NCBI GenBank assembly: GCA_022561355.1
Contig: JADFRJ010000001.1
Location: 1 to 57,081 of the forward strand
Direction: 5' to 3'
From: Chloroflexota bacterium
GTDB taxonomy: Bacteria; Chloroflexota; Dehalococcoidia; DSTF01; RBG-16-68-14
DNA: 57,081 bases
The notes beneath the pieces were generated by a model. That model was not told where the DNA came from. It ran no database searches and saw only the letters and a program-made list of their open reading frames with translations. Made by a program: the position numbers and the translations under genes. Positions 2,908-43,288 of this stretch are shown here, in pieces (within the stretch, counting starts at the first letter, position 1; each line of letters starts with the position of its first letter).

Positions 2908-4422
2908 TTAGACCACGCCCTCGCGAATCCACTCGCCGGCCCGTTCGCCGATCATGACTGAGGTCAGATGGATGTTGGCCCGTGGACAGTTCGGCATCAC
3001 CGAGGCATCCGCTACGAACAGGTTGTCGAATCCGCGCACCCGCAGGTGCTGGTCGACGACGCCCATGGGATCGCCGGCGGGCGCCATCTTGGCGGTGCAA
3101 CTCGGATGAAAGCCGCTCGACGCGAGGCTCCTGCACCAATCCGCCAGCGCATCGTCATCGAGAATAACAGCGGTGTCCGGTGCCTTGACGCCATCCGACA
3201 AGTGTTCGAATTCCGGGTGCGAGCCGATTTCCAGGCCGAGGCGCACGCCCGCAACGAGCCGCCGGACATCTTCATCGGCTTTGAGGAACCGTTCGTCGAT
3301 CCTCGGCGGTACGTGCGGATCGGCCGATTGCAGTGTGAGGCGGCCACGCGACTTCTGCCGGTAGATGACAGTGCCGATCGCATACACCAGCCTGCCCGAT
3401 CGGGTCGCGAGTTGGGAGACGGGCATGAGTTGCATGTCGTTTCGTTCCTGGCCACCGGTCGAGGTGTACCGATACGTCGACTGGACGACTGGATCGTTCC
3501 TCTTCAGCAGTCCATCCTTGGCAGCAAACGTGACACCCAGCATCGGATGGTCGTCAAGGTTCTCGCCCACCCCGGGCAGGTCTGCCACCACGTCAATGTC
3601 CAGTTCTCGCAGGTGCGCCGCCGGGCCGATGCCGGACCGCATCAAGACCGCGGGCGATCCGATCGCCCCGCAAGCCAGCACGATGCGATCGCCTGTGATC
3701 ACCTCTGACCCGCCGCTCGTCTCGACCTCCACGCCGGTCGCCCGAGACCCGTCCGTGACGATTCGCCGAACGAGACACTCTCCCTTGATCGACAGGTTCG
3801 GCCGCTTCCTCGCCGGTTCGACGTAGCAGATGGCGACGCTCATCCGGCGGCCGTCCAGCTTGTTCATCGGATGAAAGCCGAGCCCCGCCGATTGTGGATG
3901 GTTGTTGTCGGGCGTCTCCTCGTAGCCGAGGGCCCGCATTGCCCGGACAAAGGCCGCCTGCACGGGCACGAGCTCTGCTTCGGTATGGCGCCGCACGGGG
4001 ATCGGCCCGTCTTGGCCGTGGAACTCGTTGTCGAAGTCGAGGTCACGCTCCAGGCGGCGAAAGTAGGGGAGCACCTTCTCCCATGACCACTCATCGTTGC
4101 CGAGCGATGCCCATTCGTCGTAGTCTTCGGGCGCGCCGCGCAGAGCGATCGCGGTGTTCACGGCCGACGAACCGCCGACGACCTGGCCGGCCGGCAACGG
4201 CACCACGCGCCCCGCGACGTTCGCCGTCGCTTCGTAGCCCCAGTCATGCGCGAAGTAAGAGTTCTCGTTGCCGTTCAAGAGGTCCGCCGGCGTCTGCGAC
4301 GCCGTCGCATAGTGCGGCCCGGCTTCCAGGAGAAGCACCGATAGGCTGCTATCCTCCGAAGCGCGAACCGCGGTGACGGCCCCGCCTGCTCCCGCGCCGG
4401 CAACGATCACGTCGTAGTGCAA
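2908..4422 (-). CDS. GMC-family FAD oxidoreductase (choline dehydrogenase / cholesterol oxidase-like)
   Basis: N-terminal YDVIVAGAGAGGAV dinucleotide fold. 504 aa. C-terminal GMC signature region HPSCTAKMAPAGDPMGVVDQHLRVRGFDNLFVADASVMP. TTG start preceded by GAGGAGAGG. Confidence 0.88.
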   Translation of the reverse strand: MHYDVIVAGAGAGGAVTAVRASEDSSLSVLLLEAGPHYATASQTPADLLNGNENSYFAHDWGYEATANVAGRVVPLPAGQVVGGSSAVNTAIALRGAPEDYDEWASLGNDEWSWEKVLPYFRRLERDLDFDNEFHGQDGPIPVRRHTEAELVPVQAAFVRAMRALGYEETPDNNHPQSAGLGFHPMNKLDGRRMSVAICYVEPARKRPNLSIKGECLVRRIVTDGSRATGVEVETSGGSEVITGDRIVLACGAIGSPAVLMRSGIGPAAHLRELDIDVVADLPGVGENLDDHPMLGVTFAAKDGLLKRNDPVVQSTYRYTSTGGQERNDMQLMPVSQLATRSGRLVYAIGTVIYRQKSRGRLTLQSADPHVPPRIDERFLKADEDVRRLVAGVRLGLEIGSHPEFEHLSDGVKAPDTAVILDDDALADWCRSLASSGFHPSCTAKMAPAGDPMGVVDQHLRVRGFDNLFVADASVMPNCPRANIHLTSVMIGERAGEWIREGVV

Positions 4423-4557
4423 CTGCCCATCCTCTCCTCAATCAGCATGCCTCTGCCCATCCACAGCGCGCAGCCATCCGGCTCGCTTTGACTAAGAGCG
4501 GGCCGCAGACGGCCTGCACCAAAGGGAGGGGGCCGCCTGCGGCCCAAGTGGCCACGC

Positions 4558-4627
4558 TGTTAAGTTTAGTTCCTGTGATGGAACGTCGCACGTGCCTTAA
4601 AGCCTCGAAAGGACGGGCCATTCGGCC
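4558..4627 (-). promoter_or_regulatory. candidate operator/promoter composite (Box1 GGGCCATTCGGCC at 4615-4627 plus a TAAACTTAAC-type box at 4558-4570), oriented toward the GMC gene
   Basis: Same box order and a shared CTTTAAGGC spacer as the inverted copy at 4860-4907. Box1 recurs in five other intergenic regions of the window. Confidence 0.35.
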
Positions 4628-4859
4628 ATAGTACACAGCGCGTAGTAGACGCAGGCTGGCCCGCACCACTCATCCACGCGCAGCGGCTTGCTCATGGTGG
4701 TTGAATGAACGCCGCCTGGTAGTAGTAGTCGCCGGCTCCCGAGTCTGTACGTCTAGCTGCCAAACATCAGACCACTCTCTGCGCCGCCATTCCGCGCCAC
4801 TTCTTTCACGGAGCCAGTCGCGCATGGTTCCCGCGGGAGGCCCTTCAACCCCCAATGAC

Positions 4860-4907
4860 GTGCCATATGGCCCTTTAAGGCTTAACTTAGCAAGCGCTAG
4901 GTTAAGG
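4860..4907 (+). promoter_or_regulatory. candidate operator/promoter composite upstream of the FAD/SCP2/A1 operon (degenerate Box1 at 4860-4873, Box2 CTTAACTTAGCAAGCGCTAGGTTAAGG at 4881-4907)
   Basis: Box2 aligns by eye with 35181-35209 (CTAACTATGTTAGCGAGCGCTAGAATAGG) and with the reverse complement of 28713-28740. It lies 37 nt upstream of the GTG start at 4945. Confidence 0.4.
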
Positions 4908-4944
4908 GGCGGAAGCCAGGTAGCTATCTGAGAGGGGTCATGCC

Positions 4945-6531
4945 GTGAGCGACGCCACATTCGATGCGGTCATCATCGGGGCAGGCCACAACGGGCTTTC
5001 GTTGGGCACGTACCTATCCAAGTGCGGCTGGGATGTAGCGATATTCGAGAAGCGCACTGAAGAGGGCGGCGGCCTCTGCACGGAAGAGCTGACGCGGCCC
5101 GGCTTCCTCCACAACGTTCACTGCAACTACCACACGCTGGTCGGCGTCTGTCCGGTGTACGAGGATCTGGATCTGTACGACCACGGCCTGGAATACGTGC
5201 GGCCGGAGGTGCAGATGGGAAGCGTCTTCAAGGACGGCACCGCGATCACCGTGCATACGGACATCGATAAGACGTGCGCTTCGTTCGCGCGATTCTCGGA
5301 GAAGGACGCGGAGACCTTCCGGCGGCTGCACGATGAGGTGAAGGGTTACCTGGACTTGATCCTGAGTACGTTGATGTACTCTCCGCCCATCCCGCTGGTC
5401 GATATCACGAAGGCGCTCGTCGTCTGGAAGATCACCGACAAGGCGGAGTTTCTGAGCGTCCATCTGCGGAACATGACGATCAACGAGTTCCTGGACGAGC
5501 ACTTCGAGAACGACAAGGTGAAGGCGATGCTGGCCTTTCAGGCGGCCATCTCCGGCTACGCGACGGACCTGAGGGGGCTCGCGGTGTCGTTCCCGCTGCT
5601 TGTGGGGAAGATGGACAACTGGCACGTCTGCATTGGCGGTTCTCATCAGCTCGCGCACTCCCTCTGGGAGGCGTTCGCGCATGCGGGCGGGAGCGTGTTC
5701 CTCAACACACCTGTCGCGGCGATTCTGACCGACAACGGCAAAGCGACAGGCGTGCGCCTCTTCGATGGGAGCGAAGTGAAGGCGCGGCACGTCGTCGCCA
5801 GCACGATCGATTTGGAGCAGACTTTCCTGAAGATGCTCCCGCGTGAGAAGTTGGACCCGGACCTGGTGAAGCATGTGGAGGAGTACTCGCACATGGACTG
5901 GTCCTACTACAGCGTGCATCTGGCGATGAGCGAAGCACCGCAGTACGAGGCGGCCTCGTTCGACCCTGACATCCAGCAAGCCTGGGTGCTCAACGCTGGC
6001 TATGAGTCGCTCAATGACCTGACCCAGGATTGGAAGACCGTCCGCGCGGGCAAGCTGGCCGATCCCAAGCCGAACTGCGCCGTGAACTCGCTCTTCGATC
6101 CAACCGATGCGCCCGATGGATCGTTTACGGGTCTCATGCGCCAGTTCGCCCCGATCGAGATCGGGAGCGGCGGTATGGAGGCGTGGGACGAGATGGCCGG
6201 CCCATACGGAGAGCGGTGCATAGACGCTTGGGCGTCTTACGCTCCCAACATCAGAGACGCAACGATCGAATGGCAGCCTTACACGCCGCTCGACATCTCG
6301 CGGCGGATGGTGAACATGGTCCGTGGCGACTGGATGGGCGGCATGATCGACTTGGACAACTTGCTCACGGAGCGGCCGACCCCAGAGCTTTCGCAGTACA
6401 AGACACCGTTCGAGGGTCTGTACTTGTGCGGGGCCACCCAGCATCCGCACGGCTTCATCACGTTCGCGCCGAGCTACAACGCGCTGCAAGTGATCGCAGC
6501 CGATCACGGATTGGATCGATGGTGGCAATGA
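4945..6531 (+). CDS. CrtI/phytoene-desaturase-like NAD(P)/FAD-dependent oxidoreductase (copy 1)
   Basis: N-terminal FDAVIIGAGHNGLSLGTYLSKCGWDVAIFEKRTEEGGG (GxGxxG followed by E..GG). 528 aa. Paralogous to 7048-8661 along its whole length. Confidence 0.85.
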   Translation: MSDATFDAVIIGAGHNGLSLGTYLSKCGWDVAIFEKRTEEGGGLCTEELTRPGFLHNVHCNYHTLVGVCPVYEDLDLYDHGLEYVRPEVQMGSVFKDGTAITVHTDIDKTCASFARFSEKDAETFRRLHDEVKGYLDLILSTLMYSPPIPLVDITKALVVWKITDKAEFLSVHLRNMTINEFLDEHFENDKVKAMLAFQAAISGYATDLRGLAVSFPLLVGKMDNWHVCIGGSHQLAHSLWEAFAHAGGSVFLNTPVAAILTDNGKATGVRLFDGSEVKARHVVASTIDLEQTFLKMLPREKLDPDLVKHVEEYSHMDWSYYSVHLAMSEAPQYEAASFDPDIQQAWVLNAGYESLNDLTQDWKTVRAGKLADPKPNCAVNSLFDPTDAPDGSFTGLMRQFAPIEIGSGGMEAWDEMAGPYGERCIDAWASYAPNIRDATIEWQPYTPLDISRRMVNMVRGDWMGGMIDLDNLLTERPTPELSQYKTPFEGLYLCGATQHPHGFITFAPSYNALQVIAADHGLDRWWQ

Positions 6532-7055
6532 CAGACTCCTTGTCCGCAAACGGGATCGTGCCGGTCAGGGCAGTGGCTGGCGATGAGGCTAGCGGACTGG
6601 CGAACATTATCGCCCAGTATCTGGAGCAGATATTGAACGAATCGGCGGAAAAATGCGCCGAGGCGTTATCGCTCCGAGGCCGGCTCGGCCTGCGTGCGCG
6701 GGAGGGCGACGTCGCCGTGACGATCGTATTCGATGGCGAAGACGTCGCGATCGAGGAGGGCCTGCAGGACCCGGATGCCGTAATCGGCGGAGATATCGAA
6801 TTTCTGATGCACATCATGGCTGGCAGGGCTAACCCGGCGTGGGAGATGCTCAGCCGCAACATAACGATCCAGCCGGGACGGCGGCCGCTGTTTGCCTATC
6901 AGGCCTACAGCCTGATGCGGCTGCCAGGTGTTCACGTATGGAACGGCATGCCGCGCCCGCCAACAGGCCTCCTGGTGGGCGCGGCAGCCGCGTTGGTGGC
7001 CGGGCTATCGATCAGGTATGCCCGGCGCAGAGAAGCAGGAGGTGAGGATGCCTGA
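6519..7055 (+). CDS. SCP2 (sterol carrier protein 2)-like domain protein with a C-terminal hydrophobic tail anchor
   Basis: I trimmed the 341-aa track ORF to the ATG at 6519 (an alternative ATG is at 6528), because the upstream part overlaps the FAD gene out of frame. SCP2-like core: VTIVFDGEDVAIEEGLQDPDAVIGGDIEFLMHIMAGRANPAWEMLSRNITIQ. The C-terminus GLLVGAAAALVAGLSIRYARRRE looks like a tail-anchor helix. Confidence 0.6.
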   Translation: MVAMTDSLSANGIVPVRAVAGDEASGLANIIAQYLEQILNESAEKCAEALSLRGRLGLRAREGDVAVTIVFDGEDVAIEEGLQDPDAVIGGDIEFLMHIMAGRANPAWEMLSRNITIQPGRRPLFAYQAYSLMRLPGVHVWNGMPRPPTGLLVGAAAALVAGLSIRYARRREAGGEDA

Positions 7056-8661
7056 GGCAACGTACGACGCGGTGATCATTGGCGCGGGCCACAACGGCCT
7101 CACCTTGGCTGCGTACCTCGCCAGGTCAGGATTGTCCGTTGGGATCTTCGAACGCCGTCACGAGGATGGTGGCGGCGTGAACACGGAAGAGGCGACCGTC
7201 CCCGGCTTCCACCACAACCTTCATGCCCAGTACATGGAGTTCATCGACTACATGCCGGTCTACCACGACTTCGAGTTGGAGAAGTGGGGCGCCCGGATGA
7301 TCTATCCGGACACGCAGTTGGGCATCACGTTCGCTGATGGCCGGCCGCCGATCGTCATCTACCGGCCCGACCCTGAGCTGGACAAGAAGACCCACAAGAG
7401 CATCTCCGAGTACTCCAGGCACGATGCGGATACATGGCTGGAGCTGAAAAACAAAGTGATGGCGAAAGAGCACCAGATGGCAGCGACGCTCTACAGTCCA
7501 GCGGAGGCCGAGGACAGCGCTGAGGCGTCGGCGGGCATGATGAGCGCGGGTCTCGATCTCTGGCAGGACCTAGGCCTCACGATGAACGACATCGGTAAGG
7601 CGCCGAAGGTGCTGATCGATCGCTTCTTCGAGTCGACCGAGTTGCGGGCGTTGCTGTACCGCCAGTGCATCGAGTGGGGGGCGAACGTGCACTCCGGCAA
7701 CGGATACGGGTTCCTGGTCTCTGTCCTCTGGCTGAGCGCGATCCACAGGATGGTCGTCGGCGGTACGCATTCGCTGGCACACGCCATGGCAAACGCCGCC
7801 ATGAAGGCGGGCGCGTGCATGCGCTTCACAAGCCCGGTGGTCAAGATCCTCCTGGACGACGGTCGCGCGACAGGCATCCAGCTCAAGGATGGCACGAAGA
7901 TCAAGGCGCGCAAGCTGGTCGCCTCGAACGTAGACCCCAAGCAAACGTTTGTGGACTTCATCGGCGAGGAGAACCTGGAGCCGTTCCGCAAGGAGCGGCT
8001 GGCCGGGTGGCACTTCGGTCCGGAGCACGTTCTGGGCACGCCGTCGTTCGCGCTTCACGAAGCGCCGGACTACAAGTCCGCGAAGTGGAACGAGGACATC
8101 AACCGCTGCTTCTACACCCTTGTGGGCTTTGAGTCGGCGGAGCAGATTTCCGATTACATCCTGCAGGCATACGGCGGTCAGATACCGGACCGGCCGGGCG
8201 CGGGCACGTGGGTGAACTCGCTCTGGGACCCCACGCAGGCGCCGGCGGGCAAGCACGCCATGAACGGCTGGTTCTTCTTCCCGAGGGCGTCTTGTCTCAG
8301 TGAAGAAGAGTGGGACGACATCCGTGCTACGTACAACGACAAGTTTCTGAAGCTCTGGGAGGAGTACGCGCCGAACATGACGCGGGACAACGTCATCGCG
8401 GACCGGCTGTACACGGCCTTCGACATCGAGAAGAAGATGGGGATGCCCGAGGGCGACTTCTCCCACGGCCGCTCGGGCGGTATCGGCGTCGGTATGCCGC
8501 GTGGATACCAGTACCGGACGGAGTTTCCGGGTCTGTACCTCTGCGGTGCTTCCGCCGGTGGCGGGGGCGTCAGTGCCGCTCCTGGCTACGGCTCATTCAA
8601 AGTGATCTGCAAAGACCTTGACCTGCCAAAGATCTGGAAGCGGGAATCGCGGGCCTATTAA
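7048..8661 (+). CDS. CrtI/phytoene-desaturase-like NAD(P)/FAD-dependent oxidoreductase (copy 2)
   Basis: The start was moved to the ATG at 7048, which follows AGGAGGTGAGG. N-terminal YDAVIIGAGHNGLTLAAYLARSGLSVGIFERRHEDGGG. Paralog of 4945-6531. Confidence 0.85.
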   Translation: MPEATYDAVIIGAGHNGLTLAAYLARSGLSVGIFERRHEDGGGVNTEEATVPGFHHNLHAQYMEFIDYMPVYHDFELEKWGARMIYPDTQLGITFADGRPPIVIYRPDPELDKKTHKSISEYSRHDADTWLELKNKVMAKEHQMAATLYSPAEAEDSAEASAGMMSAGLDLWQDLGLTMNDIGKAPKVLIDRFFESTELRALLYRQCIEWGANVHSGNGYGFLVSVLWLSAIHRMVVGGTHSLAHAMANAAMKAGACMRFTSPVVKILLDDGRATGIQLKDGTKIKARKLVASNVDPKQTFVDFIGEENLEPFRKERLAGWHFGPEHVLGTPSFALHEAPDYKSAKWNEDINRCFYTLVGFESAEQISDYILQAYGGQIPDRPGAGTWVNSLWDPTQAPAGKHAMNGWFFFPRASCLSEEEWDDIRATYNDKFLKLWEEYAPNMTRDNVIADRLYTAFDIEKKMGMPEGDFSHGRSGGIGVGMPRGYQYRTEFPGLYLCGASAGGGGVSAAPGYGSFKVICKDLDLPKIWKRESRAY

Positions 8662-8671
8662 GGAGTGCGCC

Positions 8672-9142
8672 ATGGCCGAGATCTACACGACCGCCTGGTA
8701 CGACAGCATGAAGGAGATCCTCAACGCGAGCGATGAGGTGACGAAGAGCGCGCCGAAAGGCATCTGGAACATTCTGGCGGAAATCCACGGCGACGGCACT
8801 TCCCCATACATCGCCGTTGATGACGTCAAACGCTTCGCGATCGTGCTCGATAACGGAAAATGCGAGAGCTATCAGGAGCTAACAGAGGCGCCGGCGCGGA
8901 AGGATTTCGAGTTCATCCTGGAGATGCCCGCCAGCCTCTTCGAGCGTGTCGTCGCCAACCAGGCCGACCCGCTTGAGGCCGGGCTCAAGGGCGACGTGAA
9001 GATCGTGGGCGACATGCGTGTGCTGATCCAGAACGCCGAACTGGTGAGCATTCTCGCGGACATCTACCAGCGCGAAATCGAGACGGAATGGCCTAACGGC
9101 GCCCCTCCATACGACGCGGCGCCGGCGGGAGGTGCCTCATGA
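8672..9142 (+). CDS. SCP2 sterol/lipid-binding domain protein (soluble)
   Basis: ATG at 8672 after AAGGAG. The SCP2 hallmark segment is DFEFILEMPASLFERVVANQADPLEAGLKGDVKIVGDMRVLIQ. The stop overlaps the A1 start (ATGA at 9139-9142). Confidence 0.7.
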   Translation: MAEIYTTAWYDSMKEILNASDEVTKSAPKGIWNILAEIHGDGTSPYIAVDDVKRFAIVLDNGKCESYQELTEAPARKDFEFILEMPASLFERVVANQADPLEAGLKGDVKIVGDMRVLIQNAELVSILADIYQREIETEWPNGAPPYDAAPAGGAS

Positions 9143-11919
9143 CGCAAGCAGCCCTTAGGCTGAGCGCTCTTGCGGAGAAGAAGGAGAAAGGCAGCCAGAC
9201 CTATGGCTCCTGGCAGGACATCTATCGCGAGAAGTGGACGTGGGATCGCGTCGTCAAAGGGACGTGCAACCGCGCCGACTGCATCGCTGCCTGCTCGCTA
9301 GACCTGTTCGTCAAGGATGGCATCGTCTGGCGGGAAGAGCAGAACGCTATCTTCGAGCAGACCAACGAGACGGTGCCGGACTTTAACCCGAGGGGCTGCC
9401 AGAAGGGCATCATTTACAGCGACCTGATGTACGACGCTTCCCGCATTAAGTACCCGCTGCGACGGGTCGGCGAGCGTGGCTCAGGCAAGTGGGAGCGGAT
9501 CTCCTGGGACGACGCCTTGACGGAGATCGCCGACAAGGTACTGGACGTCTGCAAGGAAGACGGCCCGGAGAGCGTCATCTACGACTTCGGGACCACGAAC
9601 ATCGACTTCGGACCCGGAACGCCTGCCGAGCAGCATCTCATTCGCCTAATCGGCACGACGTCGCTCGATGAGTGGGCCGGCGTTGGGGACCTGCCCATGG
9701 GCGCCATCCAGACGTGGGGGCTATTCACCGCCGATGGCACCTCCGACGATTGGTTCAACGCTGAGACGATTATCGTCTGGCTGGGCAATCCTGTCTACAC
9801 GCGAGTGCCGGACGTCCACTTCATGTTCGAGGCGCGCTACAACGGCGCTCGGGTCGTCACGATCGCGCCCGACTATAACGCCACGGTGGTGCACTCCGAT
9901 CTCTGGTTGAATCCGCGCGTCGGCACGGACGCCGCCCTGGCGCTCGCGATGTGCAACGTGATCGTGGAGGAGGGGCTGCAGAAGAAGCGCTACGTTCAGG
10001 AACAGACCGACCTGCCATTCCTGCTGCGCGAAGATACCGGCCGCTTCCTCCGTCAGTCTGACCTCGCCAAGGACGGCAAGGATGACATCTTCTACATCTG
10101 GGACCTAGCCACCAAGACGCTGCAAGAGGCGCCGGGGACGAATGGACAGCCGGAAGCGTCGATCGATCTGGGCGATCTCGATCCCGCGATGGAAGGCGAG
10201 TACGAGATAGAGCTGCTGGACGGCCGGAACGTGACCGTACGACCCGCCTTCATGGCGCTCAAGAAGCGGTTAGACGAATACACGCCGGAGCGGGCGGCCG
10301 AGATCACGGGAGTCGGCGCCGGCATGATCCGGCGTTTGGCCCGCCAGGTAGCCGAAAGTCCCGCCACGATGATCTTCTGCTCTTGGGGGTCCTGCAAGCA
10401 CTACCACATGGACTTGGTACAGCGATCCATCATTCTGCTGCTCGCGCTCACCGGCAACACCGGCAAGCGTGGCGCCGGCATGCGCATTGGCGCTTGGTGG
10501 AACATGTCCCTCAGCTACGACAAGGCAGGCGTCGGAGCGCTCGCGGCGGCCGGTGGTGACGCGGAGCGGCCTAAGGTCCGCGATGTTGAGAACATCATGA
10601 AGACGCTGATGAAGGCCAACTCTACGATCAGCCCAACGATGCCGTTTCTCTACAAGCACGACAAGGGCTACGCGAAGCTGGTCAACACGCCGGGGTATCA
10701 CGATCCCGATCTGAAGCGCCCCATCAGCGAGTACATGCAGGAGGCGTTCGACAAGGACTGGATGCCCGTCTACCCCAGGGACGGCAAGACGCCGCGCGTC
10801 TTCCTCTACACAGGCATGAACCCGCTGCGGCGCTGGCCGGCGCCCGACGTCATCCGCGAGAACCTGTGGGCAAATTTTGAGCTGATCGTGACGTGGGAGT
10901 TTCGCATGTCCAGCTCCGCCATGTACTCGGACATTATCTTGCCCGCGGCGGGATGGCACGAGAAGTCCGGCATTAAATTCTGCCAGAGCTACGTGCCGTA
11001 CATCTGTGTCGGTGAACAGGCCGTGGAGCCGCTCTACGAGTCGAAAAACGAGTTCGACATCATGGCCAACTTGGCCGAGACGCTCGAACGGCGGGCAAAG
11101 GAGCGGGAGGAGGCGCCGTACAAGGATGCCTTCGGCAACGAGCACGATCCGCGCGAGATCTTCCGGCTCTGGAGTTTTGACGGTGAGTTCGGCGAAGGCG
11201 ATGCTGAGAAGGCGCTGAGCGTCCAGTTCGAACTTTCGGACCCGGTTGGAGATGCCACGTGGGAAGAGGCGGCTCAGAAGGGGGCCGTGCCCGTTAAGTC
11301 GACCGGAGGCTACGGGCCGATCACCGCCATCACGAACGATTTCAAGGAAGGTGAGACGCTCTATCCGTTCGCGTGGTTCGTTGAGGGCAAGGAGTCTTGG
11401 CCAACGCTCACCGGTCGCCAGCAGTTCTACATCGATCATCCATGGTTCCTGGAGGCCGGCGAAGAGCTGCCGACGCACAAGGAGCCTCCTCCCGCCGGCG
11501 GCGACTACCCACTGCGTATGACAGGTGGACATACGCGATGGAGCATCCACTCCATCTGGAGGAGCAACCGCACGCTCCTGCGGCTCCAGCGCGGAGGTCC
11601 CGTGATGTACATCAGCACACAGGACGCGAAGGAGCGCGGCCTGAAAGACCACGATGAGGCGCGGGTCCGGAATGACGTAGGCGAGTTTAAGGTCAGGGTC
11701 AAGCTGGCGCCCAGCGTTCAGCCCGGCCAGGTGGTGATGTATCACGCCTGGGAGCCCTACCAGTTCGAGCAGTGGTCCAGCCAACAGGCTGTGAACCCCT
11801 CGCCGTTGAACCCGCTTCACCTAGTGGGCGACTACGTCCAGCTCCAGTACCGCTTTGCGCTCGCCCAGCCCAGCAATATCTCCCGGGCGATGACCGTAGA
11901 GCTGACGAAAGTGACGTGA
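9139..11919 (+). CDS. type II DMSO-reductase-family Mo-bisPGD catalytic alpha subunit A1 (NarG/EbdA-like, no signal peptide)
   Basis: 926 aa. N-terminal Fe-S (FS0) region GTCNRADCIAACSLDLFVKDGIVWREEQ...NPRGCQKG. NarG-like GDLPMGAIQTWG segment. C-terminal FYIDHPWFLEAGEELPTHKE. GGGAGGTG RBS. The maximal ORF contains no RR motif. Confidence 0.9.
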   Translation: MTQAALRLSALAEKKEKGSQTYGSWQDIYREKWTWDRVVKGTCNRADCIAACSLDLFVKDGIVWREEQNAIFEQTNETVPDFNPRGCQKGIIYSDLMYDASRIKYPLRRVGERGSGKWERISWDDALTEIADKVLDVCKEDGPESVIYDFGTTNIDFGPGTPAEQHLIRLIGTTSLDEWAGVGDLPMGAIQTWGLFTADGTSDDWFNAETIIVWLGNPVYTRVPDVHFMFEARYNGARVVTIAPDYNATVVHSDLWLNPRVGTDAALALAMCNVIVEEGLQKKRYVQEQTDLPFLLREDTGRFLRQSDLAKDGKDDIFYIWDLATKTLQEAPGTNGQPEASIDLGDLDPAMEGEYEIELLDGRNVTVRPAFMALKKRLDEYTPERAAEITGVGAGMIRRLARQVAESPATMIFCSWGSCKHYHMDLVQRSIILLLALTGNTGKRGAGMRIGAWWNMSLSYDKAGVGALAAAGGDAERPKVRDVENIMKTLMKANSTISPTMPFLYKHDKGYAKLVNTPGYHDPDLKRPISEYMQEAFDKDWMPVYPRDGKTPRVFLYTGMNPLRRWPAPDVIRENLWANFELIVTWEFRMSSSAMYSDIILPAAGWHEKSGIKFCQSYVPYICVGEQAVEPLYESKNEFDIMANLAETLERRAKEREEAPYKDAFGNEHDPREIFRLWSFDGEFGEGDAEKALSVQFELSDPVGDATWEEAAQKGAVPVKSTGGYGPITAITNDFKEGETLYPFAWFVEGKESWPTLTGRQQFYIDHPWFLEAGEELPTHKEPPPAGGDYPLRMTGGHTRWSIHSIWRSNRTLLRLQRGGPVMYISTQDAKERGLKDHDEARVRNDVGEFKVRVKLAPSVQPGQVVMYHAWEPYQFEQWSSQQAVNPSPLNPLHLVGDYVQLQYRFALAQPSNISRAMTVELTKVT

Positions 11920-11935
11920 GAAACGAGGTGCAGTG

Positions 11936-12586
11936 ATGCGTGTAGGCCGAGTGGACGCGAAAGACGAGGAGTTGCTGAGCCCTGACTCGAAGGCTTGGCA
12001 AGAAGCCCCGGTCAACGAGGTCGTGCTGTCGCCGGCGCCGCTCGAAATGCAGCCGACTGAGTACATCCGTGTTGCTCGAAACGGCCGTCCATACGGCGTC
12101 CTTTCGAGCATGAAGGTGAGCGCCTTGCACAACGGCGACAGTGTATTCTTCCACTTGATCTGGCAGGACGGCTCTGAAGACGGACCGATCAAAGACATCA
12201 ACCAGTTCGCCGATGCCGCGGCCGTGATGTTCCCGATGGTCGAGGATGCGCCGCTCATTGGCATGGGAATCAAAGGCAAGCCAGTGAACGTATGGCTGTG
12301 GCGCGCTGACTGGGAGCGGCCGAAAAACGTCGCCGCGGAAGGGATGGGGACGACGGTGCGCCGGGACGATCCGGCACTCTCGTCGGCCGCGCGGCACGCC
12401 AATGGACAATGGGACCTGATCGTCGCTCGATCGCTGAACGGAAAGCGCGCGCCTCAGGGAACCGTCGCGCTGGCGCCCGGAACGGTAACGAAGATCGCAT
12501 TCGCCGTCTGGCAGGGCTCCGAGCAGGAGCGCGCCGGCCTGAAGGCGTTCTCTCCCGACTGGCAAGAGCTAGAGCTTGATGCGTAG
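11936..12586 (+). CDS. EbdC-like heme-b gamma subunit of a type II DMSO-reductase enzyme, lacking a signal peptide
   Basis: Shares the MG...PVN(V/I)W.W(R/K)A and FAVW.G...ER.G.K..S motifs with the gamma at 44049-45041. The ATG at 11936 lies 5 nt after GAGGTG; a GTG at 11933 is also possible. There is no hydrophobic N-terminus. Confidence 0.75.
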   Translation: MRVGRVDAKDEELLSPDSKAWQEAPVNEVVLSPAPLEMQPTEYIRVARNGRPYGVLSSMKVSALHNGDSVFFHLIWQDGSEDGPIKDINQFADAAAVMFPMVEDAPLIGMGIKGKPVNVWLWRADWERPKNVAAEGMGTTVRRDDPALSSAARHANGQWDLIVARSLNGKRAPQGTVALAPGTVTKIAFAVWQGSEQERAGLKAFSPDWQELELDA

Positions 12587-12604
12587 CGGAAAGTAGGACC
12601 CGCC

Positions 12605-13657
12605 ATGAGTGAACGACAACTCGCGTTTGTCTTCGACCTCAACAAGTGTTTGGGCTGCCAGACGTGCACCATTTCGTGCAAGACGCTCTGGACGGACCAG
12701 CCGGGCATGGAATACATGTGGTGGAACATCGTCAATACGATGCCCGGCCGGGGCACGCCGCGCGATCGGGACGAGATGGGCGGCGGCTTCGATGCTGAAG
12801 GGCGCGCGCGGGCCGGCGTGCTGCCGAGCGCAAAGGACTTCGGAGAAGCTTGGGATTTCAACTACGAAGAGGTCTTCTACGAAGGGAAGGGCCAATCGGC
12901 ATACCTCCACCCGCGCAACCCAAGCGCGGACGGCAAGGACGAAGCTCCGGAGTGGGGGCCGAACTGGGACGAGGACCAGGGCGCGGGCGAATACCCCAAT
13001 AGCTACTACTTCTACCTGCCCACGATCTGCATGCACTGCACGGAGCCGGCCTGCCTGGCCGCCTGTCCTCGAACGGCGATCTCCAAGCGCGAAGAGGACG
13101 GCATCGTCCTCATCGATGAGGACCGCTGCGATGGCTATCGCTTCTGCATGGAGGCCTGTCCGTACAAGCGCATCTATTTCAACCCGGACCGCTTCATCTC
13201 ACAGAAGTGTGTCATGTGCTTCGCGAGGCTGGAGGAGGGCGTCGCGCCCGCTTGCGTTCGCCAGTGTCCTGGGCGCGTTCGCCACTTCGGCTATCTGGAC
13301 GACGAGGAGAACGACGTCTTCAAGCTCGTTAAGACCTGGAAAGTGGCGATCCCATTGCACCCCGAATTCGGCACAGAGCCCAACGTGTACTACGTGCCGC
13401 CGCTCGCGCCACCACGCTTCGACGAGAACGGGGAGATCGATGAAGAGAATCCTCGCATCCCCATGGAGTACCTGCGCTCGCTCTTCGGCCCGGCGGTGGA
13501 TCAAGCGCTCGCGACGCTCAAGCTGGAGATGGAGAAGACGCGGCAGGGAGGGAAGTCTGAGCTGATGGACATTCTGATCGCCTACAAGTGGCAGAACATG
13601 TTCATTCCGTTCGTGGAGGACCCGGGAGAATTGAGCCGCCCGGCGCCGAAGTCATGA
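12605..13657 (+). CDS. four-cluster Fe-S beta subunit (NarH/EbdB-like) B1
   Basis: Cys clusters CLGCQTCTISCK, CMHCTEPACLAACP, CDGYRFCMEACP and CVMCFARLEEGVAPACVRQCP. 350 aa. Paralog of 24825-25853. Confidence 0.9.
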   Translation: MSERQLAFVFDLNKCLGCQTCTISCKTLWTDQPGMEYMWWNIVNTMPGRGTPRDRDEMGGGFDAEGRARAGVLPSAKDFGEAWDFNYEEVFYEGKGQSAYLHPRNPSADGKDEAPEWGPNWDEDQGAGEYPNSYYFYLPTICMHCTEPACLAACPRTAISKREEDGIVLIDEDRCDGYRFCMEACPYKRIYFNPDRFISQKCVMCFARLEEGVAPACVRQCPGRVRHFGYLDDEENDVFKLVKTWKVAIPLHPEFGTEPNVYYVPPLAPPRFDENGEIDEENPRIPMEYLRSLFGPAVDQALATLKLEMEKTRQGGKSELMDILIAYKWQNMFIPFVEDPGELSRPAPKS

Positions 13658-14334
13658 TGCGTATCGAGGCGCTCGACACGCCGGAGGGAATCGCGGCGGC
13701 TGGCCACAGCCGTCTCTATCGGCTGCTTGCGGACGGGTTCTCCTACCCGGACGGCGAATCGTTCGACGCGCTCAAGACGGGCGAGTTTCGTAACTACGCG
13801 ATGGCAACGTGCGGGGACTTGCCGTACGACCTGGAGCCCGTCTTCGATGGGCTGGTCGCGTCGGGCACGTACACCGACTTCCAGGCTGAGTACCTGCGCA
13901 TCTTTGAGGTGGGTCTTGGTGTGCCCCCGTGTCCGCTCTACAGCGGGCTCTTCCGGGGTGGGCGAAAGGCTGTGATGGAGGAGCTGGCGCGGTTCTATAG
14001 CTATTTCGGGTTGTCGATTGAACACGGCTCCGGAGAACTGCCCGACCACATCACTACTGAGTTGGAGTTCATGCACTTCCTGGCGTTCAAGGAGTTGGCC
14101 GCGCTCGATCAGCAGAAGGACCCGGAGCCGTACCGGCGTGCCCAGGCGGACTTCCTGGAGCGCCAGCTCACGAACTGGCTGCCCGATCTGGAGAAGCGCT
14201 TGCAAGGCCTGGAACCGCCGCCGTTCTACGCGGCGTTGGCTTGGCTGACGAACACCGCGGCGCGCGCTCACCTCGCCGCGCTCGATGGATCGCTCGATCG
14301 TAACGTCTCGATTTCATTGGAGCAGGTGCGATGA
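13654..14334 (+). CDS. NarJ/TorD-family delta chaperone D1
   Basis: The ATG at 13654 overlaps the beta stop (ATGA). The segments AEYLRIFEVG...PLYSG and LPDHITTELEFMHFLAFKE are shared with the delta at 43289-44071 (PDHISIELEFMHLVTCKE). Confidence 0.8.
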   Translation: MMRIEALDTPEGIAAAGHSRLYRLLADGFSYPDGESFDALKTGEFRNYAMATCGDLPYDLEPVFDGLVASGTYTDFQAEYLRIFEVGLGVPPCPLYSGLFRGGRKAVMEELARFYSYFGLSIEHGSGELPDHITTELEFMHFLAFKELAALDQQKDPEPYRRAQADFLERQLTNWLPDLEKRLQGLEPPPFYAALAWLTNTAARAHLAALDGSLDRNVSISLEQVR

Positions 14335-15455
14335 TCCCGGCAATCTGCGTCGTTGGGCGAAAGAACAGCGGCAAGACCATGCTCATTGAGCGGCTCCTGC
14401 CGGAGCTGCTGGCGCGCGGCCGCAAGGTGGCCACGATCAAGCACGATGCCCACGATTTCGAGATCGACCTGCCGGGGAAGGATACGTGGCGCCACCGCCA
14501 GGCCGGCAGCACGACCACGATCATCTCATCCTCATCGAAGCTCGCCATGGTGCGCCTCACAGATGGCGATTCGCCGCTGGATGACTTGCTGCGCATGGTG
14601 GACCGGTCATACGACCTCGTCCTTATCGAAGGTCTGCGGCGCAGTGCGTGTCCGAAGATCCTTGTGCACCGGCCTGAGGTCGGCGATCCGCCGGGCGTTC
14701 TTGGTGACATCTGGGCCGTCGTCGGCACGCAGATGCCGGACATCGATGGTAATCCGCCGTGCATTCGGCCGGAGAACGTCGGCGCGCTCGCTGACCTCAT
14801 CGAAGAGCGGCTGCTGGGCGGGCCGGTGCAGACGCCGGCCTGGAACCTGCCAGCGCTGCTGGCCGAAGCGGGCCGCCACCACGGCCACATCTGTCCCGGA
14901 CAGGTGCTGGGAGTGCGGATGGCGATCCTGGGATGCGAACGGTTGGGGATCTACGACCCGAAGTCATCGAAGCGCCTGATCACATTTGTTGAAACCGATC
15001 GATGCGGGACGGACGCGGTGCAAACCGTGACGGGATGCACGCTTGGCAAACGGACGTTGAAGTTCGTCGACTACGGCAAGCTTGCCGCCACGTTCCTCGA
15101 TATGGACACGGGCCGCGCTGTGCGCATCGCCGCCAGGGAGAGCGCGCGCGACGCCGCGCTGCGGTTCGCGCCGGATGAGGCGGACGCGCATGCCGCGCAG
15201 TTGCGAGCGTACAAGGCGCTGCCCGCGGACGACCTGTTTAGCGTTCGGGAGGTGCGGGCCACGTTGGCTGAGGCGGAGCTGCCTGGCCGGTCGCGCGCGC
15301 GCGTCGTCTGCACAGCGTGCGGCGAGGGAGTCAGCAACGGCCGCGAGCTGTCAGTCGCGGGAAGAACGGTGTGCCGCGCATGCGCCGGCGTTCCGTACTA
15401 CGACGAAGTCGAAGCTGCAGTCGGAGTTCAAGAGCATCAGGATGGAACTCTCTAG
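14331..15455 (+). CDS. MobB (MGD biosynthesis adapter, P-loop) fused to an FmdE/FwdE-like domain with a C-terminal zinc ribbon
   Basis: The N-terminal part has the P-loop VVGRKNSGKT, IKHDAHDFEIDLPGKDTWRH and LVLIEG. The C-terminal part has HGHICPGQVLGVRMA, ETDRCGTDAVQTVTGCTLGKR and CTACGEG...VCRAC. ATGA overlap with the delta gene. Confidence 0.8.
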   Translation: MIPAICVVGRKNSGKTMLIERLLPELLARGRKVATIKHDAHDFEIDLPGKDTWRHRQAGSTTTIISSSSKLAMVRLTDGDSPLDDLLRMVDRSYDLVLIEGLRRSACPKILVHRPEVGDPPGVLGDIWAVVGTQMPDIDGNPPCIRPENVGALADLIEERLLGGPVQTPAWNLPALLAEAGRHHGHICPGQVLGVRMAILGCERLGIYDPKSSKRLITFVETDRCGTDAVQTVTGCTLGKRTLKFVDYGKLAATFLDMDTGRAVRIAARESARDAALRFAPDEADAHAAQLRAYKALPADDLFSVREVRATLAEAELPGRSRARVVCTACGEGVSNGRELSVAGRTVCRACAGVPYYDEVEAAVGVQEHQDGTL

Positions 15456-15472
15456 GCAAATGGAGGCACATC

Positions 15473-18325: not shown

Positions 18326-18462
18326 GGAAGAGATGGAGAAGAAAGAACGCGGCGAGCGATCGCAGGTGGTCGGTTCGCGGACTGTACGGAACGGGGACGA
18401 GCCGCTGGGTTGTTGGATGGGTGACCTGGCCACCATTCACTGGCGCTAGCTGCCCGGATCGA

Positions 18463-18476
18463 AGCGGACGTCCGCT
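18463..18476. promoter_or_regulatory. perfect 14-nt palindrome AGCGGACGTCCGCT, 32 nt upstream of the A3 start
   Basis: Read directly from the sequence. It lies in the 182-nt A2-A3 spacer, next to GGCGCTAGC and CAGCGCTAGAGGAGG segments that resemble Box2. Confidence 0.25.
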
Positions 18477-18507
18477 CGCCGGGAGCCTCAGCGCTAGAGG
18501 AGGCGTG

Positions 18508-18657
18508 ATGGCATCTAGGCAAGAGCGGCCGCAGGCGAACGATCCAGGAGACGTGGCGCTCCCACTGCTCGGCCAGCCTGTCACCCGGAGAGGCTTCCTG
18601 AAGGGCGCTTCCGCGGGAGCGGCCGCCCTCTACCTCACGCAGCTCGGTTGCAGCGGC
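18508..18657 (+). other. Tat (twin-arginine) signal region of A3
   Basis: An n-region of about 25 aa is followed by T-R-R-G-F-L-K and an Ala-rich h-region. Confidence 0.75.
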
Positions 18658-21507: not shown

Positions 21508-22934
21508 TGGTGTTCCTGGATACGGAACGCGCGTCAACGCACGGCCTGCCGTTACGCTTCGACGAACTGGAACGGACGACGGCGGGAGCGCTCCAAGCTC
21601 GTGATCGCCCACTGAACGCGCTGGGCCACTTCGCGATCTGGGCGAACCTTGGCGCGGGGCTCTACCTGATGATCGTCGGCGCCTGGCTGGTCCCGGCACT
21701 CAGCATCCCGCAGGCGGTCGTTGCGGTCCTCATCGGCGCCGCTCTCGGCTCCGCGTTGGTGGCGATCGCGGTCTGGCTGGGCGCGAGCGAGAACCGGCCG
21801 GGCGTCGTGCTGGCGCGAGGCGCGCTCGGCGAATCGGGCGCGAACCTGTATGGCGTGCTGGCCTCATTCCGGCATCTGGCGTGGGGAGCGCTTCAACTCG
21901 CGATTGCCGCGGAGATCGCGGCGGTCACGACTGCCCGCCTTGGGTTGGGAGGCGGCCGGCCGCTGTGGGCGGCCATATTCGGCGCTCTCGTGTTAGGAAT
22001 GGTGCTCATCGGTCCCGCGACCCTGATCCGGCGCTGGCTGGTGCCAAGTGTTGTGATCACAGCGATCATCGCCGTCGTGTTCACGTATTCAGCGTGGTCT
22101 GACTTCGGCGTGCAGACGATGATCCAGCGCGAGCCGGTCGGTGGTTGGCCAGGCATGACCGGCGCCGTCGACCTCGTCGCGGTGCTCGCGCTGATGTGGC
22201 TGCCCGTGGCGATCGACGTCGGCAGGCTGGGCGCGCCGCGCCGCGCGGGGATCAGCGCATTCCTCGGCCTCGGGACGATGACGGTTTGGTTCGTTCTCAT
22301 TGGCGTCCTGTTTGTGCCGGCCGTGGATGGCCGCGATCTGGCCGGCTTCCTGCTGGCGACGCCAGCAGGCAACCTGGCGCTGCTCTTGATCCTGGTGCTG
22401 GAGCTGGACGGCGCTGCTCTCAGCCTCTACTCGCTGGCGTCGACGGCGCGCGGGTGGATTCCGAAGGCGGACGCGGCCGTGCCAGCGACGATCGGCGGGG
22501 CCGCCGTCTTCGCGTTGGGGGCCGCCGTGCTAGACCCGTTCGACTTCGGGGACGCCTTCCTGCTGTTAGGCGCCGCGTTTGCGCCCTTGCTCGGCGCGCT
22601 CCTCGGCGCGCGGTTGGCGCGGAGAATGGTGGCCCGGGCGCGGCCGCCGCTACTGGGCGGCGCGCTGGCCTGGGCGCTGGGCTTCCTGCTCTACAACTGG
22701 GCGGCGCCGCTGGACGTCCCTGTCTGGACAAACGCGATGTCGACCGTATTCAACGGCCTGCTACGCCTGCCGTTCCCGGCTGGCATTCCGGGCTTGAGCG
22801 CTACCGTCTTGAGCTTCGGCGTCGCCTTCCTGCTTACGGGCGCTGCTGTAGTGCTGCCGCGGTGGAGCGTTGGAGCAGGCGCCAAATCAGGCAAGAACAC
22901 TTCTGTGACTGTGGGGGAGGTGGGTACGAGATGA
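21507..22934 (+). CDS. polytopic permease, purine-cytosine/NCS1 (CodB)-like
   Basis: 475 aa with about 12 hydrophobic segments. The N-terminal part LNALGHFAIWANLGAGLYLMIVG...RGALGESGANLYGVL resembles the cytosine/allantoin permease family. The GTG start overlaps the A3 stop by 1 nt. Confidence 0.55.
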   Translation: MVFLDTERASTHGLPLRFDELERTTAGALQARDRPLNALGHFAIWANLGAGLYLMIVGAWLVPALSIPQAVVAVLIGAALGSALVAIAVWLGASENRPGVVLARGALGESGANLYGVLASFRHLAWGALQLAIAAEIAAVTTARLGLGGGRPLWAAIFGALVLGMVLIGPATLIRRWLVPSVVITAIIAVVFTYSAWSDFGVQTMIQREPVGGWPGMTGAVDLVAVLALMWLPVAIDVGRLGAPRRAGISAFLGLGTMTVWFVLIGVLFVPAVDGRDLAGFLLATPAGNLALLLILVLELDGAALSLYSLASTARGWIPKADAAVPATIGGAAVFALGAAVLDPFDFGDAFLLLGAAFAPLLGALLGARLARRMVARARPPLLGGALAWALGFLLYNWAAPLDVPVWTNAMSTVFNGLLRLPFPAGIPGLSATVLSFGVAFLLTGAAVVLPRWSVGAGAKSGKNTSVTVGEVGTR

Positions 22935-32814: not shown

Positions 32815-32849
32815 GCTCAGCCTCCATCCTTACTTCTGTTATGCGGTCC

Positions 32850-32868
32850 CGTGATCAACCCGATCACG
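32850..32868. promoter_or_regulatory. inverted repeat CGTGATC-N5-GATCACG upstream of the P450 gene
   Basis: A 7-bp perfect arm pair read directly from the sequence. It lies in the 106-nt LLM-P450 spacer, about 36 nt upstream of the P450 ATG, and no U-tract follows it. Confidence 0.3.
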
Positions 32869-32920
32869 CCGGGCACTCGATTCCTTGCGACAGCAAGCCC
32901 GGCCTCGGCGAGGCACTCTC

Positions 32921-34009: not shown

Positions 34010-34070
34010 GGCAGCCTTCCTTCACACGAGACGCGCTCACGGCGTGCCGCAGGCGAGGCACGTAGTCAAG

Positions 34071-34117
34071 GCTAAGTTAGCATCGGCGCCGTAGGGGCTG
34101 GAAGGGCCGAACGGCCC
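34071..34117 (-). promoter_or_regulatory. candidate operator composite upstream of the LLM gene (Box1 GGGCCGAACGGCCC at 34104-34117, GCTAAGTTAGC palindrome at 34071-34081)
   Basis: Both boxes were read directly. They occur in the same order, relative to the downstream gene, as at A4, A5 and the FAD operon. Confidence 0.35.
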
Positions 34118-34160
34118 TGAATTCAGGGTCTAGCTTGCGGGCTCAGTCAGGTACCGCTGC

Positions 34161-38508: not shown

Positions 38509-38594
38509 AGCCACTAAGCCGTCGTACGTTTCTCAAGCTAGCTGGCGGCGCAACCGCGGCAGGCGTCGCGTTGGGCAGCCCTGCCGTTCTTGCG
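38505..38594 (+). other. Tat signal peptide of A6
   Basis: S-R-R-T-F-L-K, then an Ala/Gly-rich h-region, then a possible VLA cleavage context. Confidence 0.8.
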
Positions 38595-41981: not shown

Positions 41982-42007
41982 CTCCCGGAAGGCTGGAGGT
42001 CGTAATA

Positions 42008-43273: not shown

Positions 43274-43288
43274 ATCGGAGGACGGGCG

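Follow-up and report, generated by a model that had tools for sequence, protein, structure and literature searches.

A conserved cassette of paired flavoenzyme and SCP2 genes leading into a molybdenum hydroxylase operon: candidate genes for oxygen-independent oxidation of isoprenoid-type lipids in an uncultured Chloroflexota bacterium

Introduction

How might a cell bring a lipid that barely dissolves in water to enzymes that oxidize it without oxygen? The question is raised by a stretch of 57,081 nucleotides from an uncultured Chloroflexota bacterium (GenBank assembly GCA_022561355.1, contig JADFRJ010000001.1, positions 1 to 57,081 of the forward strand; hereafter the window). At positions 4945 to 9142, four genes alternate two flavoenzymes with two small SCP2 proteins (FAD1, SCP2a, FAD2 and SCP2b) and lead directly into the genes of a predicted molybdenum (Mo) hydroxylase with the catalytic subunit A1. 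An initial annotation of the window described these genes as tandem duplicated pairs of a CrtI-like flavoenzyme and an SCP2 lipid carrier, which would shuttle a very hydrophobic substrate between desaturases and an oxygen-independent hydroxylase, and it did not recognize the combination as a described pathway.

Isoprenoid lipids, sterols and hopanoids among them, are persistent in anoxic sediments and serve as biomarkers. To our knowledge, an oxygen-independent route for the side chains of such lipids is known only from a single cultured betaproteobacterium, and the flavoenzyme family concerned has only two characterized members so far. In Sterolibacterium denitrificans, a delta-24 desaturase of steroids (delta-24-SD) is composed of paralogous alpha (WP_067170564) and beta (WP_067170561) subunits related to CtmAB (Zhan et al. 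2024, J Biol Chem, PMC11061730). Each subunit carries flavin mononucleotide (FMN) bound covalently to the His of a G-F-L/R-X-N/S-T/L-H-A motif, and the diene product is then hydroxylated with water by the Mo-dependent C26 hydroxylase S26DH2 (PMC11061730). CtmAB of Castellaniella defragrans consists of heteromeric phytoene-dehydrogenase-like flavoproteins with a covalent flavin that carry out O2-independent allylic C-H oxidation of limonene (PMC4109377; Puentes-Cala et al. 2018 via PMC11061730).

We lean, though not heavily, toward the interpretation that the four genes of the cassette encode one O2-independent heteromeric flavoenzyme of the limonene dehydrogenase/delta-24-SD type, in which each subunit has its own SCP2 partner, and that this enzyme would feed the adjoining Mo hydroxylase with an isoprenoid-type lipid, in analogy to the Sterolibacterium pathway. 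Throughout, "FAD" in the gene names is a label, as the characterized relative carries covalent FMN.

Gene order and junctions

The order FAD1-SCP2a-FAD2-SCP2b-A1, with overlapping or abutting starts and stops, was confirmed base by base. FAD1 (4945..6531, plus strand, 528 amino acids) runs from a GTG at 4945 to a TGA at 6529-6531. SCP2a (6519..7055, plus strand, 178 amino acids, TGA at 7053-7055) overlaps it by 13 nucleotides when translated from the ATG at 6519, or through an ATGA if the ATG at 6528 is used. FAD2 (7048..8661, plus strand, 537 amino acids, ATG at 7048 to TAA at 8659-8661) overlaps SCP2a by 8 nucleotides and has an AGGAGG 7 nucleotides upstream of its start. After a gap of 10 nucleotides comes SCP2b (8672..9142, plus strand, 156 amino acids, TGA at 9140-9142); its start, left unspecified earlier, is placed at the ATG at 8672, which is preceded by AAGGAG. 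SCP2b and A1 overlap in an ATGA, with the A1 start at 9139.

On the open reading frame map, the divergent intergenic region between FAD1 and an upstream GMC oxidoreductase gene (4423..4944) is the presumed promoter or regulatory region of the operon; no sigma-70-like site was found in it, and the promoter and terminator scan gave no usable promoter. The same scan detected no plus-strand terminator-like site within 4300-22000, which, together with the overlaps of starts and stops, fits co-expression from one long co-directional transcription unit.

FAD1 and FAD2 as members of the CtmAB/delta-24-SD family

FAD1 and FAD2 are paralogs, as proposed earlier, with 34% identity over 549 columns (E = 1e-82). 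They are thus two paralogous flavoenzyme subunits in one operon, with an SCP2 gene interposed between them. Pfam recognizes only generic domains in them (Amino_oxidase, NAD_binding_8 and DAO). FAD1 has 1895 homologs, the closest of which are 60-88% identical and derive from uncultured lineages, and the exact protein was found on 12 contigs from public assemblies.

The family comparison was made against the delta-24-SD alpha and beta sequences of the PMC11061730 supplement, kinship with CtmAB being taken from the same paper. FAD1 is 30.2% identical to the alpha subunit (E = 3e-62) and 31.5% identical to the beta subunit (E = 1e-70); for FAD2 the corresponding values are 29.2% (E = 7e-48) and 28.6% (E = 4e-47), and all four alignments are full length. 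In a four-way alignment, His59 of the FAD1 motif G53-F-L-H-N-V-H59-C coincides with the FMN-linked His57 (alpha) and His58 (beta). The FAD2 motif, G53-F-H-H-N-L-H59-A, departs from the published consensus only at its third position, where His replaces Leu or Arg. G53, F54, N57 and H59 are invariant across FAD1, FAD2, both delta-24-SD subunits and 12 cassette homologs from several phyla. By this motif, His59 would be the site of covalent flavin attachment in both FAD1 and FAD2.

The description of the flavoenzymes as CrtI-like holds at the level of the broad flavoprotein superfamily (Pfam Amino_oxidase, COG1233), whose CrtI and CrtO members also oxidize isoprenoids next to double bonds, and does not hold at the level of the family. 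The closest PDB sequences are the CrtI-type desaturases 4rep and 4dgk, and the best NCBIfam model is CrtO (NF045689), matched over the full length. However, the CrtO scores of 244.1 bits (FAD1) and 166.1 bits (FAD2) are below the cutoff of 1000, as are those against crtI_fam (TIGR02734; 86.9 and 60.8 bits, cutoff 238.1). Because both proteins fall under the curated CrtI and CrtO cutoffs, they are not members of these families, and the flavin-linking His places them with CtmAB and delta-24-SD instead. CrtI and CrtO bind FAD non-covalently, and their genes are not known to come as paralog pairs accompanied by SCP2 genes. Cyanobacterial CrtO-like proteins lack the flavin-linking His, have Cys at the aligned position and form an outgroup in a neighbor-joining tree. 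Paired enzymes of proteobacteria (Haliea, Woeseiaceae, Kiloniella and others) were considered as delta-24-SD relatives and set aside, as they have Cys or another residue in place of the His, have no SCP2 neighbors and also fall in the outgroup.

In the same tree, which carries no support values, FAD1 and FAD2 fall into two clades that are distinct from each other, from the alpha subunit and from a delta-24-SD beta clade; the last includes proteins of four fetched loci (L013, L015, L020 and L022) that are 39-41% identical to beta. Neither FAD1 nor FAD2 groups as an ortholog of alpha or beta in it. Judged by sequence, FAD1 and FAD2 are therefore members of the CtmAB/delta-24-SD family that form new subfamilies, non-orthologous to the characterized enzymes. 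Their nearest characterized relatives act on sterol side chains and on limonene, so that the flavoproteins do not fall into a clade with a known non-lipid substrate.

The resemblance to delta-24-SD extends to gene arrangement and size: adjacent genes encode paralogous subunits of about 55-63 kDa, with 29-32% full-length homology between the systems and the His in a common G-F-x-x-N-x-H motif. In Sterolibacterium, the two genes are reported as adjacent (locus tags 21262/21263) and no SCP2 gene is mentioned, whereas here an SCP2 gene follows each flavoenzyme; moreover, the flavoenzyme and Mo genes form one overlapping operon here, and the host is an uncultured Chloroflexi bacterium rather than a denitrifying betaproteobacterium. 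With CtmAB, the cassette has in common the paired paralogous flavoenzymes, the flavin-linking motif and small genes nearby. In contrast to the cassette, the Ctm system includes the ferredoxin and ferredoxin reductase CtmEF, acts on a C10 hydrocarbon and has no Mo partner. Two small uncharacterized genes, ctmC and ctmD, directly follow ctmAB (PMC4109377); they might correspond to the SCP2 genes. As a further observation on S. denitrificans, a 50-kDa "phytoene dehydrogenase" was co-enriched with 25-hydroxysteroid kinase (PMC8449060).

Two SCP2 proteins with different properties

By their predicted folds, both small proteins are SCP2 proteins, as the initial annotation had it. SCP2b scores 27.3 bits against Pfam SCP2 (PF02036, cutoff 21.3), and 12 of 12 members of its family match; the exact protein is listed in NCBI as 'SCP2 sterol-binding domain-containing protein [Chloroflexi bacterium]'. 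SCP2a, at 21.1-21.2 bits, is just short of the cutoff; within its family, 8 of 11 proteins match at E <= 0.1, and many homologs have a precomputed PF02036 match. Searches of PDB with either single sequence gave marginal matches only (E = 0.01-0.06), and the SCP2a family profile matched the Thermus SCP2 structures 1wfr and 2cx7. Nanobody matches of the SCP2b family profile against PDB sequences were spurious and were disregarded.

AlphaFold2 models built from alignments of database homologs reached a mean predicted local distance difference test (pLDDT) value of 76 for SCP2a and 79 for SCP2b. For both models, every Foldseek match with E <= 1e-3 is an SCP2 protein or an SCP2-like domain; the matches, the top ones with E = 1e-9 to 1e-4, include TT1886, 2cx7, UbiJ-SCP2, human and yeast SCP2 and the SCP2-like domain at the C-terminus of alkylsulfatases. 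The SCP2a model matches TT1886 and UbiJ-SCP2 at E = 1e-6, with a template modeling (TM) score of up to 0.73 (target) for UbiJ-SCP2, and the SCP2b model matches 2cx7 (TM 0.69/0.81) and 1wfr at E = 1e-9. In Escherichia coli, UbiJ is the SCP2 protein of a soluble ubiquinone-biosynthesis metabolon and serves soluble, O2-dependent flavoprotein hydroxylases of biosynthesis, to which it would present its polyisoprenoid lipid. UbiJ-SCP2 (PDB 6h6n/6h6o/6h6p) resembles SCP2a in fold and in proposed function, with no sequence relationship beyond the fold.

The two proteins differ at their C-termini, in line with the earlier description of SCP2a as ending in a hydrophobic helix with a basic tail and of SCP2b as soluble-looking. 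Residues 149-165 of SCP2a are hydrophobic (Kyte-Doolittle 17-residue mean 2.02) and are followed by RRRE; in the model, residues 149-173 form a helix. By the same Kyte-Doolittle test, 39 of 46 aligned family members have a hydrophobic C-terminal stretch, usually preceded by P-R-P-P and followed by an R-rich segment; the stretch is missing in the Binataceae and 'delta' versions. The modeled helix is probably a membrane anchor. SCP2b has no hydrophobic segment (Kyte-Doolittle maximum 1.15); its C-terminal W-P-x-G-x-P-P-Y motif is strikingly invariant across the family and looks like a protein-docking surface more than a lipid-carrier feature.

Whether the cassette arose by duplication of a flavoenzyme-SCP2 pair is a separate matter. 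SCP2a and SCP2b have no significant pairwise similarity (BLAST E = 8.7), and hhalign relates their families weakly (E = 0.002, probability 14%). Since no sequence similarity between SCP2a and SCP2b is detectable, duplication is proven for the flavoenzymes only. The tandem duplicated pairs of the initial annotation thus stand as far as FAD1 and FAD2 are concerned; SCP2a and SCP2b share a fold, but their common origin by duplication of a pair is unproven.

Conservation of the cassette across uncultured lineages

A family-profile search over 92 fetched loci shows that SCP2a and SCP2b homologs occur solely beside genes of the FAD1 and FAD2 clades, and that the synteny is conserved across phyla. 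The cassette spans at least six uncultured lineages. The nearest species-representative locus is that of a Dehalococcoidia metagenome-assembled genome (MAG; L023). Loci with the order FAD1-SCP2a-FAD2-SCP2b come from Dehalococcoidia (L023, L024), Binataceae (L007, L010), Abyssobacteria (L008, L090), Lindowbacteria (L092) and 'delta proteobacterium' MAGs (L011, L018, L030). In Actinomycetota (L012-L015, L091), the units are permuted to FAD2-SCP2b-FAD1-SCP2a, and each flavoenzyme retains its SCP2 gene. Of the genomic arguments for specific FAD1·SCP2a and FAD2·SCP2b pairs, which would be physical pairs of proteins, this permutation by whole units is the strongest. There are exceptions: one locus (L009) has both flavoenzyme genes without SCP2 genes, and another (L016) is without SCP2a.

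In Actinomycetota, the cassette has directly upstream of it an alpha/beta pair that resembles delta-24-SD, with 39-41% identity to the beta subunit of the latter. In two of these loci (L015, 2218-12945; L091, 3698-14425), the delta-24-SD-like pair, the permuted cassette and a Mo alpha gene are tightly clustered and followed by a two-component regulator; a third (L013, 1844-10180) has the pair and the permuted cassette and stops shortly after SCP2a. In an Abyssobacteria locus (L008), an APH-family phosphotransferase gene (13525-14535) follows the cassette in place of a Mo enzyme. In anaerobic cholesterol degradation, the 25-hydroxysteroid kinase has likewise been described as a phosphotransferase (PMC8449060).

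The adjoining Mo hydroxylase

A1 (9139..11919, plus strand, 926 amino acids) is the predicted Mo-bis-pyranopterin guanosine dinucleotide (Mo-bis-PGD) catalytic subunit of a class II dimethyl sulfoxide reductase-family hydroxylase of the ethylbenzene dehydrogenase (EBDH)/S25DH type. It matches Pfam Molybdopterin and Molydop_binding, scores 956.8 bits against TIGR03479, just under the cutoff of 984.75, and has perchlorate reductase PcrA and EBDH alpha as its best PDB matches. The genes that follow on the plus strand encode the gamma subunit (11933..12586, 217 amino acids), an EBDH-type heme b subunit (Pfam EB_dh; TIGR03477, 174.8 bits, cutoff 169.85); the beta subunit (12605..13657, 350 amino acids), an Fe-S protein (Fer4_11; TIGR03478, 516 bits, cutoff 480.7); and a NarJ/EbdD/SdhD-like delta chaperone (13654..14334; Nitrate_red_del; TIGR03482, 168.5 bits, cutoff 152.3). 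The chaperone has 226 amino acids in public gene calls (L001, L002), and a GTG at 13588 is an alternative start. The alpha, beta, gamma and delta chaperone of an EBDH/S25DH-type enzyme are thus all encoded. Between the delta chaperone and the next alpha gene, A2, a MobB-FmdE fusion (14331..15455, plus strand, 374 amino acids; Pfam MobB and FmdE) has a start that overlaps the delta stop; with its zinc ribbon (C4), it is a predicted accessory factor for Mo cofactor guanylylation. A MobB-like gene is found near a Mo alpha gene in a second Dehalococcoidia locus (L024) as well.

By analogy with S25DH1-4 and EBDH (PMC6016249; PDB 2ivf), which it resembles in its alpha-beta-gamma composition with a delta chaperone and in alphas that share beta and gamma subunits, the enzyme would hydroxylate C-H bonds with water. 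The gamma-then-beta gene order recalls Sterolibacterium, where gamma3 and beta3 were named and amplified together in that order. Unlike S25DH and EBDH, A1 scores far under the EbdA equivalog cutoff (629 bits, cutoff 2000), has the MobB-FmdE fusion within its operon and is without the twin-arginine (Tat) signal that S25DH alpha1 bears. No RR motif is present in A1, and upstream extension is impossible, as no start codon lies between its ATG and the in-frame stop upstream of it; A1 therefore appears cytoplasmic. The A1 ortholog of a 'Deltaproteobacteria' MAG (L030, ~4300-7189, 49% identity) has a clear Tat signal (MNRREFLSGSAALVL). To judge from these N-termini, one lineage seems to export the same Mo enzyme that the other keeps in the cytoplasm.

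In five loci, namely the window, L023, L030, L015 and L091, a Mo alpha starts at or within 3 nucleotides of the last cassette stop, and in three others (L018, L024 and L007) one lies within 4 kb of the cassette. Cassette-adjacent orthologs of A1 itself occur only in L023 (89% identity) and L030 (49%), in both directly after the cassette.

A proposed mechanism and competing explanations

In the interpretation toward which we lean, the C-terminal helix of SCP2a would keep this protein at the cytoplasmic membrane, where it would take up an isoprenoid-type lipid of very low water solubility; the best precedent is a sterol-like side chain, and hopanoid, carotenoid and polyprenyl chains may also be considered. 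The FAD1/FAD2 heteromer would then oxidize a C-H bond next to a double bond without O2, either desaturating the lipid like delta-24-SD or hydroxylating it at the allylic position like CtmAB. The soluble SCP2b would hold the product in solution and pass it on to A1-gamma-beta, which, once matured by the delta chaperone and MobB-FmdE, would hydroxylate it with water, as S26DH2 does after delta-24-SD. More speculatively, the GMC oxidoreductase and a nearby acyl-CoA dehydrogenase could carry the resulting alcohol toward beta-oxidation. The order of these reactions, like the electron acceptors that would serve them, is what we infer. A need for lipid handling has a precedent in vitro, where the Sterolibacterium enzymes required 6% cyclodextrin to solubilize their substrates (PMC11061730), which makes a natural lipid-handling factor plausible. 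Lipid shuttling between a desaturase-type flavoenzyme and an EBDH-type hydroxylase, as originally suggested, thus fits the SCP2 folds, the lipid-acting relatives and the synteny.

Several points weigh against this interpretation. Identity to the characterized enzymes is about 30%, and with the non-orthology to delta-24-SD alpha and beta this means that neither reaction type nor substrate can be transferred from them. For the FAD1, FAD2, SCP2a and SCP2b clades, the argument is drawn from genes and predicted folds. The window contains no sterol ring-degradation genes. The Arg-rich segment behind the SCP2a helix is a poor fit to a simple tail-anchor topology. No FAD-SCP2 fusion was found among 128 matches (E <= 0.001) of the SCP2b profile to 1.84 billion representatives, in which the strong matches are stand-alone proteins of about 150 amino acids. 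The link to the Mo enzyme is also variable: no Mo enzyme is present within 5-9 kb of the cassette in L008, L090, L011 and L092, and apart from the A1 orthologs, the neighboring Mo alphas are A2-A5-like paralogs that are non-orthologous between lineages. Finally, the A1 ortholog of L030, with its Tat signal, makes a universal, obligate complex with the Mo enzyme unlikely.

These last observations lend themselves to a different explanation, in which the cassette is self-sufficient and independent of the Mo enzyme, the adjacency of A1 reflecting a clustering of related catabolic steps or operon packing. CtmAB offers a model for it, hydroxylating the allylic methyl group without a Mo enzyme (PMC4109377, PMC11061730), and the loci without a nearby Mo enzyme, the non-orthologous alphas and the Tat-exported L030 ortholog would all be expected. 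However, in three separate lineages (Chloroflexota, Actinomycetota and a 'Deltaproteobacteria' MAG) the cassette directly adjoins a Mo alpha, and three further loci have one within 4 kb, an adjacency commoner than chance clustering would suggest, and the feeding of a Mo hydroxylase by a flavoenzyme has had a biochemical precedent since 2024 (PMC11061730). We regard a self-sufficient cassette as improbable, while giving it serious weight. Much the same doubt attaches to a more demanding version of the proposed coupling, in which SCP2a and SCP2b are obligate, subunit-specific delivery components, and FAD1·SCP2a and FAD2·SCP2b form a membrane-tethered assembly that channels membrane isoprenoids, for instance polyprenyl chains, hopanoids or sterols, to the cytoplasmic Mo hydroxylase for activation without oxygen.

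Two further explanations take the flavoenzymes to be known enzymes, and both seem very unlikely to us. If FAD1 and FAD2 were CrtO-type ketolases or CrtI-type desaturases of carotenoid or pigment biosynthesis, the SCP2 proteins could be carotenoid carriers, and the full-length CrtO matches (244 and 166 bits) and the best PDB entries would be accounted for; yet the scores are far under the curated cutoffs, and CrtO-like proteins, with Cys for the flavin-linking His, are an outgroup. Nor does the context suit pigment synthesis: no crtB, crtE or crtY-type genes are present in the window, and the surroundings are catabolic and redox-related, with an acyl-CoA dehydrogenase and five Mo alphas in the window and a thiolase and a CoA-transferase in L001. 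On the cutoffs, the motif and the context, we set aside a CrtI or CrtO identity for FAD1 and FAD2. A true limonene or monoterpene dehydrogenase, that is, a CtmAB ortholog for small volatile terpenes, fares no better. It would explain the family and flavin-linking motif in common with CtmAB (PMC11061730) and the small genes behind ctmAB. Against it, the window encodes no CtmE or CtmF, a membrane-anchored SCP2 with a second SCP2 points to larger, membrane-resident lipids, and the multi-paralog S25DH-like setting resembles that of a sterol degrader, not that of Castellaniella.

Relation to known pathways

The enzyme families and the logic of a flavoenzyme followed by a Mo hydroxylase are already known from work of 2014-2024. 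The statement that the gene combination is not a described pathway must therefore be narrowed: the sequence of flavin desaturase and Mo hydroxylase was shown in 2024 (PMC11061730), although functionally there and at the level of genes here, whereas this precedent does not extend to the SCP2 partners, to coupling within an operon or to an alpha subunit without a Tat signal. Literature searches for this gene combination, including C25 dehydrogenase with SCP2, returned no description. As far as we could find, the subunit-specific SCP2 partners, the overlapping Mo operon, the Tat-less alpha, the two flavoenzyme subfamilies and their spread in uncultured phyla have not been described.

The cassette points to how cells may solve the problem of substrate solubility, and its SCP2 proteins are concrete additions for difficult in vitro assays. 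It defines two new, well-conserved flavoenzyme subfamilies and, for several uncultured phyla of high abundance, provides candidates for the enzymes of this chemistry, with an apparently cytoplasmic Mo hydroxylase. The channeling assembly, if true, would parallel the UbiJ metabolon on the catabolic side. If it operates in uncultured lineages that abound in sediment and soil, such as Chloroflexota, Binatota and Actinomycetota, it could amount to an unrecognized route of major importance for the turnover of persistent lipid biomarkers under anoxic conditions.

Neighboring genes in the window

Five EBDH/S25DH-like alpha paralogs are encoded within 9139-38020, together with two beta subunits, one EBDH-type gamma and one delta chaperone, much as in Sterolibacterium, which has eight alpha paralogs and where alphas share beta and gamma subunits. 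Besides A1, they are A2 (~15473-18325, plus strand), A3 (~18505-21507, plus strand), A4 (25910-28696, minus strand) and A5 (35231-38020); the second Fe-S beta subunit is at 24825-25853 on the minus strand. A3 has a Tat signal (TRRGFLK), the only one among A1-A5. A1 is the outlier, with 38-43% identity to A2-A5, compared with 62% between A2 and A5. A separate, Tat-dependent Nar/Nxr-like complex occupies 38505-45041 and consists of an alpha subunit of 1158 amino acids (SRRTFLK), about 25% identical to A1-A5, a beta subunit of 421 amino acids, a delta chaperone and an EB_dh-type gamma of 350 amino acids with an N-terminal hydrophobic segment.

The divergent gene upstream of FAD1 (2908..4422, minus strand) encodes a GMC flavin oxidoreductase (GMC_oxred_N and GMC_oxred_C), which is choline-dehydrogenase-like and scores 386.2 bits against the MftG model (cutoff 387.45). 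Its neighborhood is conserved only in near-identical contigs (L001-L006), and it may be the alcohol dehydrogenase for the hydroxylated product. The radical SAM genes of the window look Ahb-like, not MftC-like; no search for other mycofactocin genes was made. These are two radical SAM/SPASM genes next to A4 (28792-31211, minus strand), one AhbD-like (TIGR04053, 482 bits, cutoff 395) and one AhbC/NirJ1-like (573 bits, cutoff 650), which suggests that siroheme-dependent heme b synthesis is encoded beside heme-b-containing Mo enzymes. Between them and A5, the minus strand (31597-35088) encodes a CYP119-like cytochrome P450 and two oxidoreductases of the luciferase-like (FMN/F420 LLM) type; genes for oxygen-dependent and oxygen-independent oxidation would thus stand side by side in the window.

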